Shown: positions 1 to 9,272 of the stretch, in pieces
Numbering within the stretch: position 1 is the first letter of the stretch
Layout: every line of letters begins with the position of its first letter
Source: a virus
Taxonomy: Duplodnaviria > Heunggongvirae > Uroviricota > Caudoviricetes
DNA length: 9,272 nucleotides
Strand: one strand, 5' to 3'
Virus record (IMG/VR): IMGVR_UViG_2695420685_000020
Notes under the pieces: model-generated
The model's database searches: none
Told to the model about the DNA's origin: nothing
The model's input: only the letters and a program-made list of their open reading frames with translations
Position numbers and translations under genes: made by a program

Positions 1-49
1 CCCCGTCAGTAGCTGAACAGGAGGGACAGCTGATAGAAACAGAAGCCAC
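1..49 (-). CDS. insA: insA of IS1, 5' end only (partial, continues past left edge); apparent GTG start at 49
   Basis: Minus-strand reading from 49 gives GTG GCT TCT GTT TCT ATC AGC TGT CCC TCC TGT TCA GCT ACT GAC GGG = (M)ASVSISCPSCSATDG, the InsA N-terminus as I recall it, preceded by GAGGTG. Confidence 0.55.
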   Translation of the reverse strand, partial: MASVSISCPSCSATDG

Positions 50-104
50 TGGAGCACCTCAAAAACACCATCATACACTAAATCAGTAAGTTGGCAGCAT
101 CACC
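1..104 (-). mobile_element. IS1 insertion sequence, terminal 104 bp (element continues past the left edge); 23-bp terminal inverted repeat at 82-104
   Basis: Reverse complement of 82-104 is GGTGATGCTGCCAACTTACTGAT, the IS1 left terminal inverted repeat as I recall it; the whole of 1-104 matches my recollection of the IS1 left end including the start of insA. The match stops exactly at 104, where gluconokinase coding sequence begins. Confidence 0.75.
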
Positions 105-353
105 GATGGCGACTATGAAACTATTCTCGCGCGAATGCAGCGTCGGGCTGGGCATTTTATGCCGGTAGCGTTACTAAAAAGTCAGTTTGAGGCACTGGAG
201 CGTCCACAAGCAGATGAACAGGATATTGTGCGCATTGATATCAACCATGATATTGCCAATGTCACCGAACAATGTCGGCAGGCTGTGCTGGCGATACGAC
301 AAAACAGAATATGTGCGAAAGAGGGCAGCGCCTCAGATCAGCGCTGCGAATGA
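105..353 (+). pseudogene. idnK: 3' fragment of a gluconokinase gene (IdnK/GntK family), apparently truncated by the IS1 insertion
   Basis: ORF track 135-353 (72 aa) plus in-frame upstream codons from 105 (DGDYETILARMQ...) resemble the gluconokinase C-terminus (LLKSQFEALERPQADE... compare GntK LLVSQFETLQEPGADE). The frame hits TAA at 87-89 inside the IS1 end, so no P-loop N-terminus is present in this window. Position next to ahr and leuX fits idnK. Confidence 0.6.
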
Positions 354-1808: not shown

Positions 1809-3095
1809 ATGTGCCCCCAAATGAAGCTCAATGCTAGACAAGTCGAGACAGCAAAGCCAAAAGACAAAAGCTACAAAATGGCCGATGGCGGCGGTTTGTA
1901 TCTCGAGGTTTCGGCCAAGGGGTCTAAATACTGGCGCATGAAATACCGACGCCCCTCTGACAAAAAAGAGGATCGCCTCGCTTTTGGTGTTTGGCCGACC
2001 GTGACGCTTGCTGAAGCTAGAAAGAGGAGGGATGAAGCGAAAAAGTTGCTGGCGCAAGGTATAGATCCAAAAGCAGTACAGAAAGAGGCTCAAGCAGAGA
2101 ATGCTGGTGCTTATAATTTTGAAACTATTGCTCGTGAATGGCACGCCAGCAACAAACGTTGGAGTGAGGATCATCGGGCGCGTGTTCTTCGCTATCTAGA
2201 GCTGTATATCTTTCCTTATATTGGCTTGTCTGATATCCGACAGCTTAAAACTAGCCATCTTTTAGCACCGATAAAAAAAGTTGATGCCAGTGGTAAGCAT
2301 GATGTGGCGCAGCGTCTTCAGCAACGTGTTACTGCTATTATGCGCTATGCCGTACAGAACGATTATATAGATTCAAATCCTGCAAGTGATATGGCTGGTG
2401 CGTTATCGACAGCTAAAACGCGGCACTATCCAGCTCTACCATCACATCGTTTTCCTGAGTTCTTAGCACGTCTTGCTGCATATCGTGGTCGTATGATGAC
2501 GAAAATTGCGGTTGAACTTTCTTTATTAACATTTGTTCGTTCCAGTGAGCTACGTTTCGCTCGCTGGGATGAATTCGACTTCGATAAATCTCTATGGCGT
2601 ATACCTGCAAAACGCGAGGAAATTAAAGGCGTACGTTACTCATATAGAGGAATGAAGATGAAGGAAGAGCATCTCGTTCCACTTAGTAGGCAAGCGATAG
2701 GGTTGTTGGAGCAGTTAAAGCAGATTAGTGGTGATAAGACGCTGCTTTTCCCTGGGGATCATGACGCAACTAAGGTTATGAGTGAGAACACTGTTAATAA
2801 TGCATTGCGTGCGATGGGCTATGATACGAAAACAGAAGTTTGCGGACATGGTTTTAGGACAATGGCACGTGGTGCGTTAGGAGAGTCAGGATTATGGAGT
2901 GATGATGCTATTGAACGCCAATTGAGCCATTCGGAACGTAATAATGTGCGAGCTGCGTATATTCATACGTCTGAGCATTTAGATGAGCGCAGACTAATGG
3001 TCCAATGGTGGGCAGATTATCTTTATTCCAACAGAGAGAAGCATATCTCTGCTTTTGAATTTGCAAATAAACTTAATAAAAATAGCCTTGATTAA
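1809..3095 (+). CDS. int: P4-family tyrosine integrase (site-specific recombinase), 428 aa (alternative ATG start at 1821)
   Basis: ORF track 1809-3095. N-terminal arm-binding-type region (AKPKDKSYKMADGGGLYLEV), C-terminal catalytic region with HGFRTMARGAL (H-x-x-R) and RAAYIH (catalytic Tyr). Located directly downstream of a tRNA gene. Confidence 0.9.
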   Translation: MCPQMKLNARQVETAKPKDKSYKMADGGGLYLEVSAKGSKYWRMKYRRPSDKKEDRLAFGVWPTVTLAEARKRRDEAKKLLAQGIDPKAVQKEAQAENAGAYNFETIAREWHASNKRWSEDHRARVLRYLELYIFPYIGLSDIRQLKTSHLLAPIKKVDASGKHDVAQRLQQRVTAIMRYAVQNDYIDSNPASDMAGALSTAKTRHYPALPSHRFPEFLARLAAYRGRMMTKIAVELSLLTFVRSSELRFARWDEFDFDKSLWRIPAKREEIKGVRYSYRGMKMKEEHLVPLSRQAIGLLEQLKQISGDKTLLFPGDHDATKVMSENTVNNALRAMGYDTKTEVCGHGFRTMARGALGESGLWSDDAIERQLSHSERNNVRAAYIHTSEHLDERRLMVQWWADYLYSNREKHISAFEFANKLNKNSLD

Positions 3096-3172: not shown

Positions 3173-3213
3173 GCAATTATTCCATTGCTTTTAAAAACTA
3201 AGTATTCCTTAGT
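3173..3213. promoter_or_regulatory. Two palindromic operator candidates (C-boxes) upstream of the controller gene: GCAAT-N6-ATTGC (3173-3188) and CTAAG-N5-CTTAG (3198-3212)
   Basis: Seen directly: GCAATtattccATTGC and aCTAAGtattcCTTAGt. Both carry a TATTCC centre and sit 50-90 bp upstream of the C-gene ATG at 3263. From memory, CTAAG-N5-CTTAG is the reported C.EcoO109I binding site. Confidence 0.55.
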
Positions 3214-3262
3214 AATTTCGAGTGTAAAAAGTGCAAACCTACCTCCAAAAAGAGGATTTTCG

Positions 3263-3568
3263 ATGCTTCCAATTAGGTTAAAAAAAGCCCGATTGAATGC
3301 TGGGTTAACTCAAGAACAGCTGGGAATACTTGTTGGCATTGATGAATGCTCTGCCAGTGCTCGCATGAATCAATATGAGAAAGGTAAACATATGCCCGAT
3401 TTTTCACTTACTAAAAAAATCGCTGATTTATTAAATGTCCCTGTCTCATATTTTTACACACCCGAAGATGACTTGGCAGAAATTATTTTGTTGATTAATA
3501 AACTAGACAAAAAACAGCGGTTAATTTTATTAAAAAATTTATCAGATGGATTTATAAGTCATGAATAA
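3263..3568 (+). CDS. Controller (C) protein of an R-M system, XRE-family helix-turn-helix regulator, 101 aa
   Basis: ORF track 3185-3568 begins at a TTG; the internal ATG at 3263 has an AGAGGA Shine-Dalgarno 6 nt upstream (3251-3256). HTH segment LTQEQLGILVGIDECSASARMNQYEKGK. Stop overlaps the start of the next ORF, and palindromic operators lie upstream. Confidence 0.8.
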   Translation: MLPIRLKKARLNAGLTQEQLGILVGIDECSASARMNQYEKGKHMPDFSLTKKIADLLNVPVSYFYTPEDDLAEIILLINKLDKKQRLILLKNLSDGFISHE

Positions 3569-4379
3569 GCAAGAAGTTATACTTAAAGTGCAGGAGTGTG
3601 CTGCGTGGTGGATTTTGGAGAGACAAAGTAAACTAACAAAGTTAATGTCAGAAACAATGTCCATAAATCCGTTTATGACCCCTTTTATTTTTGATTATCA
3701 TTCCCTTAATGATTTTGATGAACTAGTTGAAGCAATAATTGCTAAGCATTTAATGACTGGGCATGATACTGGCTTTGGAAAATTGATTGATGAAAAAATA
3801 CTTCCTAGAGTGTTTGGTGCATATAAATTAGATAAAAGTTATAGAGCTGCCAACGAGCCTTTTATACACCCTTGCTTTGATGAAATAGATCATGTAATAC
3901 AAAGGGATGATGGTAGAATTGAGCTTTTATCTCTTAAGGCAGGGAAATGGACTATTCAATTGACGATGGCTGTCCAACTAAATAAAGCATTTCACGAAAT
4001 CATAAATAATTATCCTGGAGTGGCTGACAATATAGTGGTTGGGGTTTTTTATGGAAATAGCCATGGATTAACTGATAAGTATAGAATCTTACGAGGTATC
4101 AATACTGGTGCAAACCACAATGTGATTGATATTCGTGACAAAGTGCATGTATATGCTGGTAAAGAATTTTGGTCATGGCTTAACAATGGTGAGGCTGAAA
4201 CCCAGCATTGGGTACTTGAAGGTATAGAACGTGCTGTAAAAGAAGCAGATATAAAAGAAAAAAATAAAGATCTTATTGAAAAATTCAAAGAACATGTTGC
4301 AAAGAAGTACAATGAGCAAGTTCTAAATGCTGATGGCACAGCTCAATGGCACAAATTACTTGAAATGATTAATGAATAA
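3561..4379 (+). CDS. Type II restriction endonuclease candidate, 272 aa (possibly EcoO109I-type)
   Basis: ORF track 3561-4379. ATG overlaps the C-gene stop by 8 nt (ATGAATAA). Lies between a C-protein gene and a convergent m5C methyltransferase gene. Contains a plausible PD-(D/E)xK-like segment (FDEIDHV...IELLSLK). Length agrees with my recollection of R.EcoO109I (272 aa). No direct homology check was possible. Confidence 0.7.
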   Translation: MNKQEVILKVQECAAWWILERQSKLTKLMSETMSINPFMTPFIFDYHSLNDFDELVEAIIAKHLMTGHDTGFGKLIDEKILPRVFGAYKLDKSYRAANEPFIHPCFDEIDHVIQRDDGRIELLSLKAGKWTIQLTMAVQLNKAFHEIINNYPGVADNIVVGVFYGNSHGLTDKYRILRGINTGANHNVIDIRDKVHVYAGKEFWSWLNNGEAETQHWVLEGIERAVKEADIKEKNKDLIEKFKEHVAKKYNEQVLNADGTAQWHKLLEMINE

Positions 4380-4407
4380 AAAACTGGCCTAAGGGCCAGT
4401 TTTTTTT
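4378..4407. terminator. Bidirectional intrinsic terminator between the convergent R and M genes
   Basis: AAAAACTGGCC-taag-GGCCAGTTTTTTTT: 7-bp GC-rich stem (4383-4389 / 4394-4400), 4-nt loop, A-tract on the left and T-tract on the right, located in the 38-bp gap between the two stop codons. Confidence 0.65.
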
Positions 4408-4417
4408 ATGACTAATT

Positions 4418-5671
4418 CTAAACTTCTTCTTCAAGGTCGTAGTAAGAAACATCTCCACTATATGCTTGACCATTTTTAAAGAAAGATCTGGTTCTAATAT
4501 GCGGTCTAATATGGGTTTCTATATAATCTGGAGTTACTAAATCAGCAACCTTATTTTCTTGTATACGATGAAGAAGTTCCATAGCAGCTTCCCCTGCAAC
4601 TTTACCTAACCGGACAGGAACTGCGTTACCTATCTGTCTGAATTTTTCTGTAGTTGTACCTTCAAATTTCCAGTAATCAGGAAACTCTTGTATCGCGGCA
4701 GCTTCACCAACAGAAATAGCTCTAAGTTCAGTTGGGTGGCACATACTTGTTCCCGCATGATTTGGCATTGTTACTACTGTGGGTGAAGGAAACTGGAAAG
4801 ATAGTTTCCTCCAGTAAGCACTTCTTCCTCCTTTAAGATACCAGCTTTTTCCCATAGATTCTTTTTGCATTTCTTCTGGCATGCTTCTCCAGTTTCCGCC
4901 AGGTGGAACCATTGAAAGATATTTCAGTTTTCTTGGCGAAAAATTCATGACTTCTGGATATTTATCAACAAAACCGCTCTCTGGGCCAATTACATCCCCC
5001 AGCGTTTTGAATGGCGGAAGATTATCTTCTACTCTATTGCTGAATAAAGGGGAGGCGAAATTGGCTATCATTCCGAAGCGATTACCAATTAAAATAACAC
5101 GCTCCCTAATTTGTGGGGCTCCATAGTTGGCAGCATTAACTACAAAGCAATCCACATGATAACCTAGTTTATTGAATTCGTTAGCTACCCTTTTTATTAG
5201 AGAGCCTTTTTCGAAAGCAGATGCTGCGATTGTGCCTGATAGCTCCTTCTTTTTAGAAGCTGGAACTATAGACATTGATAATAAACCGCGTACGTTTTCC
5301 ATTACGAAAACTTTTGGGTTTAATTCTTTAATCATTCGAACATATTCGAAAATAAGCTGCCCTCTGGCATCTTCTAGCCCTAACCTATTTCCAAAAACAC
5401 TAAATGCTTGGCACGGTGGACCGCCAGCAACTAAATCTATTTCTTCTTTATCATTCACTCCGGCTAGTGCTAATAATTCAGAGCCAGTGCAGTCAACAAT
5501 ACTACCTTCGAATACAGCAAGATTTGGCTTATTAGTTTTAATTGTTTTTAGAGCTGCCTTATCTTGTTCAACGCAAGCTACGAGCTCAAAGCCAGCCTCT
5601 TCGAGACCTAAGTCTAACCCCATTGCGCCACTAAATAGCGAAATAAACTTTTTACTAGACAAAATAATCAC
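4418..5671 (-). CDS. DNA (cytosine-5) methyltransferase, Type II modification enzyme, about 414-417 aa (start codon uncertain: GTG at 5671 or TTG at 5662)
   Basis: ORF track 4418-5671 minus. Canonical m5C-MTase motifs: I FSGAMGLDLG, IV GGPPCQAFS, VI ENVRGL, VIII QIRERV, X GNAVPV. No ATG at the N-terminus; AGGTGA lies upstream of the TTG at 5662. Confidence 0.9.
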   Translation of the reverse strand: MIILSSKKFISLFSGAMGLDLGLEEAGFELVACVEQDKAALKTIKTNKPNLAVFEGSIVDCTGSELLALAGVNDKEEIDLVAGGPPCQAFSVFGNRLGLEDARGQLIFEYVRMIKELNPKVFVMENVRGLLSMSIVPASKKKELSGTIAASAFEKGSLIKRVANEFNKLGYHVDCFVVNAANYGAPQIRERVILIGNRFGMIANFASPLFSNRVEDNLPPFKTLGDVIGPESGFVDKYPEVMNFSPRKLKYLSMVPPGGNWRSMPEEMQKESMGKSWYLKGGRSAYWRKLSFQFPSPTVVTMPNHAGTSMCHPTELRAISVGEAAAIQEFPDYWKFEGTTTEKFRQIGNAVPVRLGKVAGEAAMELLHRIQENKVADLVTPDYIETHIRPHIRTRSFFKNGQAYSGDVSYYDLEEEV

Positions 5672-6574: not shown

Positions 6575-6820
6575 TTAATGGTTGAATGGTGAGCTGTAAC
6601 AGCCTTTAACTTTTCGGACAACAGCCGGTGCTGTGCTTGCCGGTGCTGGTTTTTCCTCCGTGACCGGAGAACGAATCACGGCACAAATTGACTCATGCGT
6701 TTTAAATGTCGCCGAACAGTAAATATTCTGGCACTGCAGATAACTTTCTTTGACATTGTCACTCACATACCGGCTGGTGCGGGTATGCGCTGAATGACGA
6801 CAGAAAGGGCAGCGCATCAT
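6575..6820 (-). CDS. Ogr/Delta-family zinc-finger late-gene transcriptional activator, 81 aa, single domain
   Basis: ORF track 6575-6877; true start likely ATG at 6820 (MMRCPFCRHSAHTRTSRY...), overlapping the sid stop as ATGA. Cys4 pattern CPFC...CQNIYC as in P2 Ogr (MFHCPLCQHAAHARTSRY...). Confidence 0.85.
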   Translation of the reverse strand: MMRCPFCRHSAHTRTSRYVSDNVKESYLQCQNIYCSATFKTHESICAVIRSPVTEEKPAPASTAPAVVRKVKGCYSSPFNH

Positions 6821-7551
6821 GACAGCAGTCCTCTGGCCTTCAGCTCTGCTCCCTGCTGGTCCATTTTGTCCTGCCACACCTTGCGCTGTGCCGGTGTGCC
6901 TGCCACCTCATAATCCATGTGCGGGAGTGTTGCCGCTGACAGTCCGGCCAGCCGGAGAACCGGCTCACCGCTGAGGCTGATTTGCATCTGTTTAATTTTC
7001 TGCTCCAGCGATGATTTCACCTGCTGCATGACAGCCCTTTCCGGTGCGACGTAACCCTGATGGCCGGTGGTGTTGGCGAGCGGATTTTCCTGTACCAGAA
7101 TGCTCAGATGCATTGCCCGGACAAGCGCCTCACAGGTTTCATTCAGGGCGTGTTCCAGCTCATGCTCTGCATACAGACTCAGAAGGTGATGATGTGCCTT
7201 CCGGTAGGCGGTGGCCGTGCTGTCACACGCCCCTTTCAGGCGTTCGCGTTCAAAATTCAGCACCACGGCCAGATTGTCATATTCCTGTACCAGCTCCCGG
7301 CGTGCCACGCGCTCAATGTGGCGCTGTTTCAGCTCGTCGCTCAGGACACCACCGGCTGCACGAAAGGCCGTGCGCCAGTCGTCAGCGTCGTTTCCGTCGG
7401 CTTGCGCCAGCGCATTTTTTTCCTGCTCTGCCCGTTCAATGGCCGTGACGGTCTCATCCATCAGGCGGGCGTTCTCAAGATGAGCGACTCTGGCCTTTTC
7501 CAGTTGTGCCAGCGCGGGTTGCAGATATTCAGGGATGGTGTTGTCAGACAT
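6817..7551 (-). CDS. sid: Sid (capsid size determination, external scaffold) protein of P4-type satellites, 244 aa
   Basis: ORF track 6817-7569. ATG at 7551 (MSDNTIPEYLQPALAQLEKAR...) has a GAGGA Shine-Dalgarno 8 nt upstream and gives 244 aa, the length I recall for P4 Sid. Gene order sid-delta-psu matches P4. Confidence 0.85.
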   Translation of the reverse strand: MSDNTIPEYLQPALAQLEKARVAHLENARLMDETVTAIERAEQEKNALAQADGNDADDWRTAFRAAGGVLSDELKQRHIERVARRELVQEYDNLAVVLNFERERLKGACDSTATAYRKAHHHLLSLYAEHELEHALNETCEALVRAMHLSILVQENPLANTTGHQGYVAPERAVMQQVKSSLEQKIKQMQISLSGEPVLRLAGLSAATLPHMDYEVAGTPAQRKVWQDKMDQQGAELKARGLLS

Positions 7552-8000: not shown

Positions 8001-8102
8001 AATCCCCCCTGTTGCGTCTGCCGAAAATATTCACAAAATAAAGCGCTACCCGAAGCCGGACGGACTTATCCGGTGCTGTATGGACATTAACGAGGTAGCC
8101 CG

Positions 8103-8369
8103 ATGCAAGCTGTTTTTTCTTCCCCGTCTCCCGCCCCTGTGACGCCACTGATGCCGCTGCCGGACATCACACAGGAGCGTTTTCTACGTCTTCCGGAAGT
8201 GATGCACCTGTGCGGCCTGTCACGCTCGACCATCTACGAACTCATCCGTAAGGGGGAATTTCCGCCGCAGGTGAGTCTTGGCGGTAAAAATGTGGCCTGG
8301 CTGCACTCTGAAGTCACCGCATGGATGGCCGGGCGCATTGCCGGACGCAAACGGGGGTACGACGCATGA
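8103..8369 (+). CDS. vis: Vis/AlpA-family small DNA-binding regulator (P4 Vis-like), 88 aa
   Basis: ORF track 8103-8369. ATG with GAGGT 7 nt upstream. AlpA-type HTH segment [45 protein letters not shown]. Length equals P4 orf88 (vis) as I recall it. Confidence 0.8.
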
Positions 8370-8404
8370 TGATGCCCGCTCTGCAAAAACTCCCTTTTTC
8401 TGGC

Positions 8405-8434
8405 TTGCCTTTTTCCGGCATTTGCGGATATAGT
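8405..8434 (+). promoter_or_regulatory. Candidate sigma70 promoter (TTGCCT-N18-TATAGT) for the immunity/left operon (PLE-like)
   Basis: -35 TTGCCT at 8405-8410 and -10 TATAGT at 8429-8434, just downstream of vis and upstream of the complementary-box leader. Confidence 0.35.
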
Positions 8435-8465
8435 TTTTCCGCTGCCGCAAAATCGGCAGCCGGGC

Positions 8466-8757
8466 GTGAGAACCCGAGCAATTCACAGGCGACATATGAC
8501 GCGCCACGCGTCTTTTTTTGTGTCGCAATCAATGCCACAGAGCGCCAGATTATGGTGTGGTGTGTGGTCAGTCGTGCAGATGGCATTCCGTGCATCCTGC
8601 CCGCGTCCGCTCATTATGCCGCAGAGTCAATGGTAGCTCAGGCGGGGCAGCCTCCGGGCTGGCCGGTATCCTGTGAAGCCGGTATTCTCACCCCCGTCTG
8701 GGCTATCGCCATCGAGCGTGAGAACTCCGGCGATAGCGTTATTTGCTATTCACAGGA
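8466..8757 (+). ncRNA. Immunity-type leader with CI/c4-like antisense boxes: box A 8466-8489, complementary box B 8669-8691, box C 8718-8757 (overlaps the RBS of the downstream small ORF); RNA boundaries unknown
   Basis: GTGAGAA...TTCACAGG occurs at 8466-8489 and at 8718-8757. Its reverse complement CCTGTGAA...TTCTCAC occurs between them at 8670-8691. Box C ends in AGGAGG, the Shine-Dalgarno of the ORF starting at 8768. Confidence 0.35.
8498..8519 (+). terminator. Intrinsic terminator: GACGCG-cca-CGCGTC followed by T7
   Basis: 6-bp GC stem at 8498-8503 / 8507-8512 with T-run at 8513-8519, about 60-80 nt downstream of the candidate promoter. Confidence 0.5.
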
Positions 8758-8767
8758 GGCTGCCATC

Positions 8768-8965
8768 ATGGCTACAACCCTTACCCCCTCACACCCTGAA
8801 TTTGTCTTTGTGTTTGCGGCTGTCCGTCGCGCAGACCGTCATCCCCGTATCTGTATGCTTCGCACCGTCGCCGGTGATGAACGCAGTGCCCGCCGTTCCC
8901 TTGTCCGTGACTATGTGCTCTCCCTTGCTGCCCGTCTGCCGGTGGTGGAGGTGTCCCGTGCGTAA
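8768..8965 (+). CDS. Small Icd/Kil-like protein (65 aa), first gene after the immunity leader
   Basis: ATG at 8768 with AGGAGG 8 nt upstream ([65 protein letters not shown]). It is the C-terminal part of track ORF 8321-8965, whose upstream portion is the non-coding leader. Family assignment is by position and recollection of P4-like annotations only. Confidence 0.55.
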
Positions 8966-9245
8966 TAAAAAAGCCCCTCAGACCGTCTCAGCACGTCATG
9001 ACGCCCGTGAACACCTCAGCATTGAGGCTTACCATAAGCTCAACCGCGCCAGCGCCGTATCCCAGTTTGTTGGGGGTGATTTGATTCACCGTGAACTCTC
9101 CGGCCTGCATCAGCTCTACATTCCGCATATTTTCAGTTACCTGAATGAAGATATTGATTTTGTGCTGAATGAACTGAAAGCCAAAGGCCTGTGCCGCGAT
9201 TTTCTCGCCCAGCAGAAAGACCGGGGAGACAGGACGCATGTTTGA
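8958..9245 (+). CDS. Hypothetical protein (95 aa) with GTG start overlapping the preceding stop (GTGCGTAA)
   Basis: Open frame to TGA at 9243-9245 with no in-frame ATG. GTG at 8958 is preceded by GGAGGT (8947-8952) at 5-nt spacing. Corresponds to the 3' part of track ORF 8673-9245. Confidence 0.45.
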
Positions 9246-9272
9246 TTTTCCCCAGCCCGGTGAGATTTACCG
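9238..9272 (+). CDS. 5' end of a further ORF ([11 protein letters not shown]...), partial, continues past the right edge
   Basis: ATG at 9238 overlaps the preceding TGA (ATGTTTGA), with GGGGAGA/AGGA upstream. Only 11 codons are visible. Confidence 0.25.
   Translation, partial: MFDFPQPGEIY

Follow-up and report, generated by a model that had tools for sequence, protein, structure and literature searches.

In phage P4 the CI RNA is processed from the leader and pairs with two sites, seqA and seqC, leading to premature termination (Hershko-Shalev et al., PMC4825925), and it is among the hairpin-like RNAs that have been discussed as substrates of E. coli RNase P (PMC5499578). In Gifsy-1 of Salmonella (isrK-orf45-anrP) the IsrK sRNA controls translation of orf45-anrP, IsrK is a structural homolog of the P4 seqA RNA and STnc1160 is a CI-like processed RNA (PMC4825925). 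The c4 region of P1 and P7 (immI; a1/b1, a'/b', a2/b2 and icd-ant) is a member of the same Rfam C4 family and clan, and its elements come in the same order: an upstream target, a processed antisense RNA and a downstream target covering the ribosome binding site of a gene for an Icd-like protein. At the anti-immunity locus of N15 and phiKO2, a small processed RNA (CB) controls icd-antA-antB. The RNA family and the regulatory logic are common to P4, P1/P7 c4, N15/phiKO2 and Gifsy-1 IsrK.

We analysed a stretch of 9,272 nucleotides from a Caudoviricetes virus record (IMGVR_UViG_2695420685_000020), referred to below as the window, in which an immunity layout of the P4 CI RNA or P1 c4 type had been predicted downstream of vis. 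This prediction was borne out. Bases 8380-8970 of the window were aligned with the minus strand of phage P4 (NC_001609/X51522, 8753-8163) and were identical at 589 of 591 positions, and the window matched the Rfam families C4, isrK and c4-a1b1 above their gathering thresholds. The sole difference from P4 in this interval is CG at 8440-8441, which is GC in the P4 record. Coordinates were converted from this alignment (P4 coordinate = 17133 - window coordinate). About 49% of the whole window aligned to P4, at 92.9% identity.

The genomic setting is that of a P4-type satellite at a tRNA gene. The integration site is tRNA-Leu(CAA), i.e. leuX, at 1572-1656 and is followed by a P4-type integrase (1809-3095, by family match); the Psu and Ogr_Delta families were matched in the window and sid was supported by the P4 alignment. 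The immunity region, all features of which are given on the plus strand, lies directly downstream of vis/orf88, an AlpA-family excisionase-regulator (8103-8369; Pfam Phage_AlpA, 7e-21) with P4 ORF88 at the equivalent place. The promoter, boxes, terminator, CI RNA gene, kil and epsilon are all shared with P4, as are the neighbours (vis upstream, sid, delta and psu beyond) and the leuX site, whereas the CG/GC swap at 8440-8441, a different cargo between int and psu and a shorter delta distinguish the window from P4. The cargo of the window between int and psu includes an EcoO109I-like restriction-modification system.

Judged from the sequence, there is a probability of about 95% that the region serves a P4-type satellite prophage at leuX as its immunity region, working as it does in P4. 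What carries this reading is the identity to P4, the presence of the RNA families, the three-way complementarity of the boxes and its covariation, the overlap with a ribosome binding site and the conservation of both the terminator t1 and the eta reading frame. Every testable feature of the P4 CI RNA immunity system was found, and no sequence evidence against a P4-type reading was found in the window. The region represents the classic P4 switch, which was among the first small processed RNAs known to control both termination and translation; the immunity switch is real but already known and its value as a discovery is small. The module is also common. In a megablast search, 1049 of 5426 complete E. 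coli genomes matched window 8050-9272, and with a more sensitive search about half of them (2838/5426) matched part of 8380-8970.

The other described systems are more distant. Window 8622-8807 can be aligned with P1-like phages at 72-75% identity, and in the P1-like phage D6 an isrK-like element, a predicted terminator and C4 precede icd-ant. In P1 and P7, however, antirepressor genes (ant) follow icd instead of satellite replication genes, and the box sequences differ. No ant gene was found downstream of kil in the window, where epsilon is located, and the element is therefore not a P1 operon. For phiKO2, about one third of the query aligned in two pieces (window 8418-8730, approximately 76% identity), and c4-a1b1, isrK with an annotated terminator and C4 are followed by icd and ant in the same order as in the window, but the N15/phiKO2 locus controls the antirepressor operon of a linear plasmid-prophage and not a satellite replication operon. 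For Gifsy-1, the seqA leader of the window matched the isrK model with 69.7 bits; in that system translation of a downstream ORF is reportedly activated in trans by the short RNA, leading to AntQ expression, whereas control in P4 is described as repressive, with seqA as a target of the CI RNA.

The candidate promoter proposed downstream of vis was recovered as TTGCCT (-35), an 18-nt spacer and TATAGT (-10) at 8405-8434 and was the sole promoter-like site in a consensus scan. We refer to it as PLE; the X02534 record places the -10 at this same position, the TTGC...TATAGT pattern was kept in relatives, and the transcription start is expected near 8441. The promoter is followed by an IsrK-like leader RNA containing seqA (8441-8518), which consists of hairpin 1, hairpin 2 and the terminator t1. 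In an Rfam scan of the whole window, isrK (RF01394) was matched at 8441-8518 with 69.7 bits (gathering threshold 50) and c4-a1b1 (RF03163) at 8428-8480 with 49.5 bits (gathering threshold 46.7), so that both lie upstream of the C4 RNA, and thermodynamic folding of the seqA leader gave the same three hairpins. The CG that the window carries at 8440-8441 lengthens hairpin 1 by one base pair relative to P4, and each of the 22 relatives that accompany the window in the covariation alignment described below (A2) has this version.

An intrinsic terminator between seqA and cI had been predicted at 8498-8519, and the terminator scan found it there as a 6-bp G+C-rich stem (8498-8512) followed by T7. 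We take it to be t1 of P4, which was reportedly named by Briani, Ghisotti and Dehò (Mol Microbiol 2000), with termination there said to be raised by the CI RNA and seqA. The original prediction regarded a terminator between box A and box B as a departure from P4. This view did not hold, since the same terminator is present in the P4 sequence, in the isrK model, in all 23 aligned relatives, in phiKO2 and in D6. In the aligned relatives, a swap of G-C to C-G was seen at the base of the stem. A variant architecture deduced from the position of this terminator was rejected, given that P4, N15-like and P1-like phages all have one.

Both strands of all 9272 bases were searched for GTGAGAA-N(5-30)-TTCACAGG, and three sites only were found, two on the plus strand (8466-8489 and 8718-8756) and one as the reverse complement (8670-8691); the number of bipartite matches expected from 200 dinucleotide-preserving shuffles was 0.00. 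The coordinates that had been proposed for box A (GTGAGAA-N9-TTCACAGG, 8466-8489) and box B (CCTGTGAA-N7-TTCTCAC, 8670-8691) were confirmed. For box C the proposed position (8718-8759) was correct and the proposed spacer of 25 nucleotides was not, the sequence being GTGAGAA-N24-TTCACAGGAGG, or GTGAGAA-N24-TTCACAGG(AGG) when it is written on the motif. Box A corresponds to seqA, with a1 (GUGAGAA, 8466-8472) forming the loop of hairpin 2 in the isrK structure and b1 (UUCACAGG, 8482-8489) located in the single-stranded stretch ahead of the terminator. Box C corresponds to seqC, with a2 (GUGAGAA) at 8718-8724 and b2 (UUCACAGGA) at 8749-8757, and its 3' half is exactly complementary to box B over 8749-8757. 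The complement of both, seqB (box B, 8670-8691), is located inside the small RNA, so that one RNA is complementary to one site upstream and one site downstream in the leader.

The cI gene, encoding the CI RNA of the C4 antisense RNA family, was located at 8626-8713 by a full-length match to the Rfam C4 model (RF01695, 74.9 bits, gathering threshold 45, model positions 1-87 of 87). According to the Rfam C4 structure line, the b' half of box B (CCUGUGAA) forms the loop of the second inner hairpin and the a' half (UUCUCAC) lies in an unpaired junction adjoining the closing stem. Because box B is inside the C4/CI RNA with its two halves exposed in a loop and an unpaired junction, it is the effector, with boxes A and C as targets; this settles which box acts on the others, a point that had previously been left open. 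The mature CI RNA is predicted to span about 8632-8710, corresponding to about 79 nt. It has a long closing stem followed by GCCA, a CCA-like 3' end, as in RNase P substrates, and the segment folds at -49.3 kcal/mol (z = -4.6). Thermodynamic folding recovered both Rfam structures (C4 and isrK). Folding of the region in silico had been suggested as a check, and in the minimum free energy structure of the whole leader box B was paired with box C in cis.

As predicted, the 3' end of box C covers the Shine-Dalgarno sequence of the small ORF that follows: b2 (8749-8757) overlaps AGGAGG (8754-8759), which is located 8 nt upstream of the ATG at 8768. This ORF is kil (8768-8965), which encodes a 65-aa Icd-like cell-division inhibitor (NCBIfam NF033153, phage_ICD_like, 1.6e-21) and is identical to P4 over its whole length. 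seqC thus overlaps the start region for translation of kil, the gene translated first downstream of PLE, and by analogy with P4 the ribosome binding site of kil is probably the first to come under immunity control. The Rho-dependent terminator timm of P4 has been assigned to X51522 coordinates 8365-8209 (PMC3177188). Converted via the alignment, these correspond to window 8768-8924 and map onto kil. The next gene, epsilon (8958-9245), encodes a helper derepression protein (Pfam Derepression, 7.7e-51) and is equivalently placed in P4; it would be a downstream gene of the operon that is silenced by immunity. The alpha gene is outside the window, yet it is present in a near-identical locus of a complete genome.

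The features above suggest the following sequence of events, in which RNA processing, CI-dependent termination at t1 and timm, Rho dependence and translation of eta are drawn from the P4 literature or from analogy with it. PLE (8405-8434) would be constitutive and give a leader transcript, the first approximately 78 nt of which would contain the target seqA and end at t1. Read-through past t1 would generate transcripts with cI (8626-8713), from which the CI RNA would be excised, with its 5' end formed by RNase P and with PNPase also taking part in the processing, as a stable RNA of approximately 79 nt that would display box B in a hairpin loop and the adjoining unpaired junction. Both halves of box B could then pair with seqA and seqC on newly made transcripts from PLE. 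Pairing with seqA would increase termination at t1, and pairing with seqC would hide the Shine-Dalgarno sequence of kil and leave kil untranslated, so that, as proposed, Rho would terminate transcription within kil at timm. In this way epsilon, orf151 and the alpha primase gene would stay off and the element would remain a prophage. Transcripts that start at PLL and are translated through the long eta ORF would escape this immunity control.

If the boxes function by pairing, a change in one of them should be accompanied by changes in the other two; such three-way compensatory change is predicted by base-pairing and not by protein coding. To the window we added 92 loci, comprising five from other genera (Kosakonia, Enterobacter, Phytobacter, Kluyvera and Mixta), 80 from IMG/VR and seven divergent E. 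coli loci at 69-92% identity. A scan of genome contigs with the 65-aa Kil protein contributed five loci, and most of the diversity came from IMG/VR and the divergent E. coli. The C4 scaffold was present in 92 of the 93 sequences, and an isrK-like element followed by C4 was found in all loci scanned with Rfam (14/14). The a' half-box occurred as TTCTCAC, TTCCTAC, TTTCCAC, ACGCCAA and CTGCAAA, and the b' half-box as CCTGTGAA, CCGATAAC, CCGTTAGA, CCTTGAAG, CCAATAAG, CCTTCAGA, CTTCGAG, CCTATGAC and CCAAGGTT. At least five a-types and nine b-types formed 18 box combinations among the 92 loci, and exact complements of box B were present both upstream and downstream in nearly all of these combinations.

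Covariation was quantified in an alignment of 23 representatives (A2). For the duplex between boxes A and B, 98.6% of the cells were paired and 12 of the 15 base pairs had changed on both sides. None of 500 shuffles reached the observed pairing and covariation, and controls in which the alignment was slid out of register were 40-54% paired. The duplex between boxes B and C gave a similar picture, with 12/15 pairs changed on both sides and 95.9% of the cells paired, the latter being an uncorrected underestimate because a 1-nt gap in A2 shifts the GTTATCGG-type seqC out of register; here too the observed values were reached by 0/500 shuffles, and the slid controls were 36-52% paired.

The immunity stretch is at the same time covered by a long ORF in the kil frame. 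This ORF (8366-8965) spans seqA, t1, cI and seqC and has ATG codons at 8366, 8369 and 8372, giving proteins of 199, 198 and 197 aa, and the frame is open back to 8321. Pfam Phage_ASH matches aa 22-146. We take the ORF to be the eta gene of P4. According to what is reported of the work of Forti et al. (J Bacteriol 1999), the 65-aa kil is the end of the longer eta (197-199 aa), and eta is said to be translated from transcripts begun at the upstream promoter PLL, such translation resulting in escape from immunity. Across the whole RNA region the eta frame was open in 76 of 78 distinct relatives, where it survives indels of 3, 6, 9, 24, 39 and 42 nt as well as paired -1/-2 or +1/-1 changes, and the other two frames contain 1-7 stops in relatives. 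The chance of an open frame for a single sequence is approximately 2-8%. We considered whether the long ORF might be spurious and rejected this, because the frame is kept in diverged relatives despite numerous indels. The stretch thus encodes a protein as well as an RNA, and the RNA mechanism would therefore stand even if the long ORF were translated. The original prediction had treated translation of this ORF as a single protein as a refutation of RNA-based immunity, which is not valid given that the ORF is eta, has a conserved frame and is reportedly translated alongside the RNA mechanism. Part of the sequence conservation of the region could be at the protein level, because the whole region is also an ORF with a Pfam family.

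The same ORF is the basis for an alternative in which the immunity factor is a protein, either the product of an old 137-aa 'ash/cI' ORF or Eta, and the boxes are a by-product of coding. The open and conserved frame, the Phage_ASH match, the RefSeq label of the 137-aa ORF in P4 ('transcriptional repressor / cI gene product') and the PGAP call of a 199-aa Icd-like protein at the locus all agree with it. It does not account for boxes that co-vary so as to keep Watson-Crick pairing, with 12/15 compensatory pairs in each duplex, or for matches above threshold to three structure-aware Rfam models. For P4, Ghisotti et al. (1992) reportedly found that immunity persists when the ORF carries nonsense or frameshift mutations that preserve the RNA structure. 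The literature describes the immunity factor as an RNA (PMC4825925, PMC3632133), and we consider a protein repressor extremely improbable. An RNA that controls immunity as in P4 could still be accompanied by an additional layer of the IsrK type, in which the short seqA RNA ending at t1 acts in trans. Since it has the same sequence as seqC, such an RNA could pair only with the CI RNA, as a decoy that would titrate it and tune immunity. The strength of the isrK match (69.7 bits, terminator included) and the conservation of element and terminator in the 14/14 scanned relatives, phiKO2 and D6 are in line with this, but in P4 seqA is explained as a target in cis through which termination at t1 is increased, which counts against a role in trans. 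The short IsrK RNA of Salmonella acts in trans (PMC4825925), and IsrK-like elements of P4-like prophages were required in S. Typhi according to TraDIS, with the role of the element, or of the short seqA RNA, in lysogenic maintenance described as unclear (PMC3632133). A decoy would, however, oppose immunity, whereas the TraDIS result suggests that seqA supports lysogeny. By analogy with Gifsy-1 a trans-acting seqA RNA may exist in addition to the P4-type switch, and we regard this as unlikely.

P4-type immunity in the window could also be a relic, with a module that is intact but unused and nothing left downstream to repress. Position 9272, where the window stops, falls within the gene that follows epsilon, which leaves alpha and the remainder of the element out of view, and delta is a 100-aa ORF here compared with 166 aa in P4. 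Against this, near-identical loci in complete genomes keep the full set through the alpha primase gene, copies of the module with 100% identity occur in other E. coli genomes and all P4 genes visible in the window are intact ORFs. The near-identity of the module (589/591) to the active P4 and these intact neighbours make a dead remnant very unlikely, and we retain the reading of a functional P4-type switch.

With regard to annotation, for which the result is of practical use, the long ORF appears in current pipelines as a 199-aa 'Icd-like', 'Ash family' or 'transcriptional repressor' protein only, and the CI RNA, seqA, seqC and t1 are missing from the pipeline annotation of this stretch. A large survey of P4-like satellites makes no mention of RNA.

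The assortment of the half-boxes is the sole mildly new by-product of the analysis. Heteroimmunity between P4 and phiR73 through the seq boxes was already known on a small scale. Among the P4-like satellites compared here the two half-boxes assort independently, with matching changes at all three sites. On the sequences compared, the chances are roughly even that this mix would represent a combinatorial code of immunity that recombination reshuffles and that determines between which satellites exclusion operates. Occasional recombinants were present, e.g. a locus (L077) in which seqA is mismatched to its own CI RNA.

The three-way match, in which the CI RNA pairs with seqA and seqC through two half-boxes, had natural exceptions among the 92 related loci compared with the window. 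In one of these (L077, 1172-1525) seqA was of the type GTGAGAA/TCTAACGG but the CI RNA and seqC were of a different type, GTGGAAA/TTCACAGG, and given this difference in specificity the locus looks like a recombinant in which the exchange took place between seqA and cI. Two other loci, L022 and L067, both carried a mismatch in seqA together with a 3-nt deletion in seqC. The frame of eta, the long ORF that runs in the kil frame across seqA, t1, cI and seqC, was interrupted in only two variants, L067 and L084.

In the minimum free energy structure of the whole leader, GCGACAUA, located directly 3' of box A, was paired with UGUGUCGC, located directly 3' of the T-run (window 8490-8526), and the predicted pairing encloses the t1 hairpin (8498-8519). 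The GGCGACA segment was nearly invariant across the alignment of 23 representatives, and the segment 3' of the T-run was GTGTCGC or ACGTCGT in most relatives, with pairing to GGCGACA kept via G-U pairs; a few relatives differed. The pairing around the t1 hairpin could represent an alternative structure that is formed on read-through only.

Over the 591 nt of the immunity region, the window differed from the P4 reference only in a dinucleotide at 8440-8441, which is CG in the window vs GC in X51522, NC_001609 and X02534, and the CG provides a seventh base pair for hairpin 1 of the seqA RNA. Since the CG version was shared by all of the relatives aligned with the window (22/22) and also by E. 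coli copies with 100% identity, the sequence comparison suggests that the GC of the P4 record may go back to an inversion made in early sequencing, or to a laboratory variant.

In the public annotation of window 8366-8965 the RNA genes were covered by protein labels only. PGAP labels the eta stretch '199-aa Icd-like protein', and elsewhere as an 'ash family protein' pseudogene, and the label in the RefSeq P4 record is 'transcriptional repressor (cI gene product, 137 aa)'. The Pfam family Phage_ASH (PF10554) matched at amino acids 22-146, and given that this part is the translation of the seqA-cI-seqC stretch, the conservation of the family may in part be due to RNA constraints. In the locus from the P1-like phage D6 (L097), a second and weaker C4-like match lay at 149-228, some 470 nt upstream of the phage's main C4 gene; it scored 40.2 bits, where the gathering score is 45, and so remained under the threshold.

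The cargo between int and psu (window 3185-5671) was a complete type II restriction-modification unit, with genes for a control (C) protein at 3185-3568, an endonuclease of the EcoO109I type at 3561-4379 and, on the minus strand, an m5C methyltransferase at 4418-5671. The endonuclease gave a full-length match to REase_II in PADLOC (654 bits), and the P4 defence hotspot is known to harbour EcoO109I (PMC9122126, which cites Kita et al. 1999). The ORF of the delta gene (6575-6877, minus strand) was 100 aa long, compared with 166 aa in P4, and contained one Ogr/Delta zinc finger; as listed, with a provisional start, it shared about 60 nt with the end of sid.

At the left end of the window, alignments point to a short repeated or mobile element that probably abuts ahr. 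Phage phi456 matched the first ~105 bases (window 1-107) at 99% in five places, the best chromosomal alignments began at 105 or 364, without the first ~105 bases, and many partial matches to the window were found in every E. coli genome.
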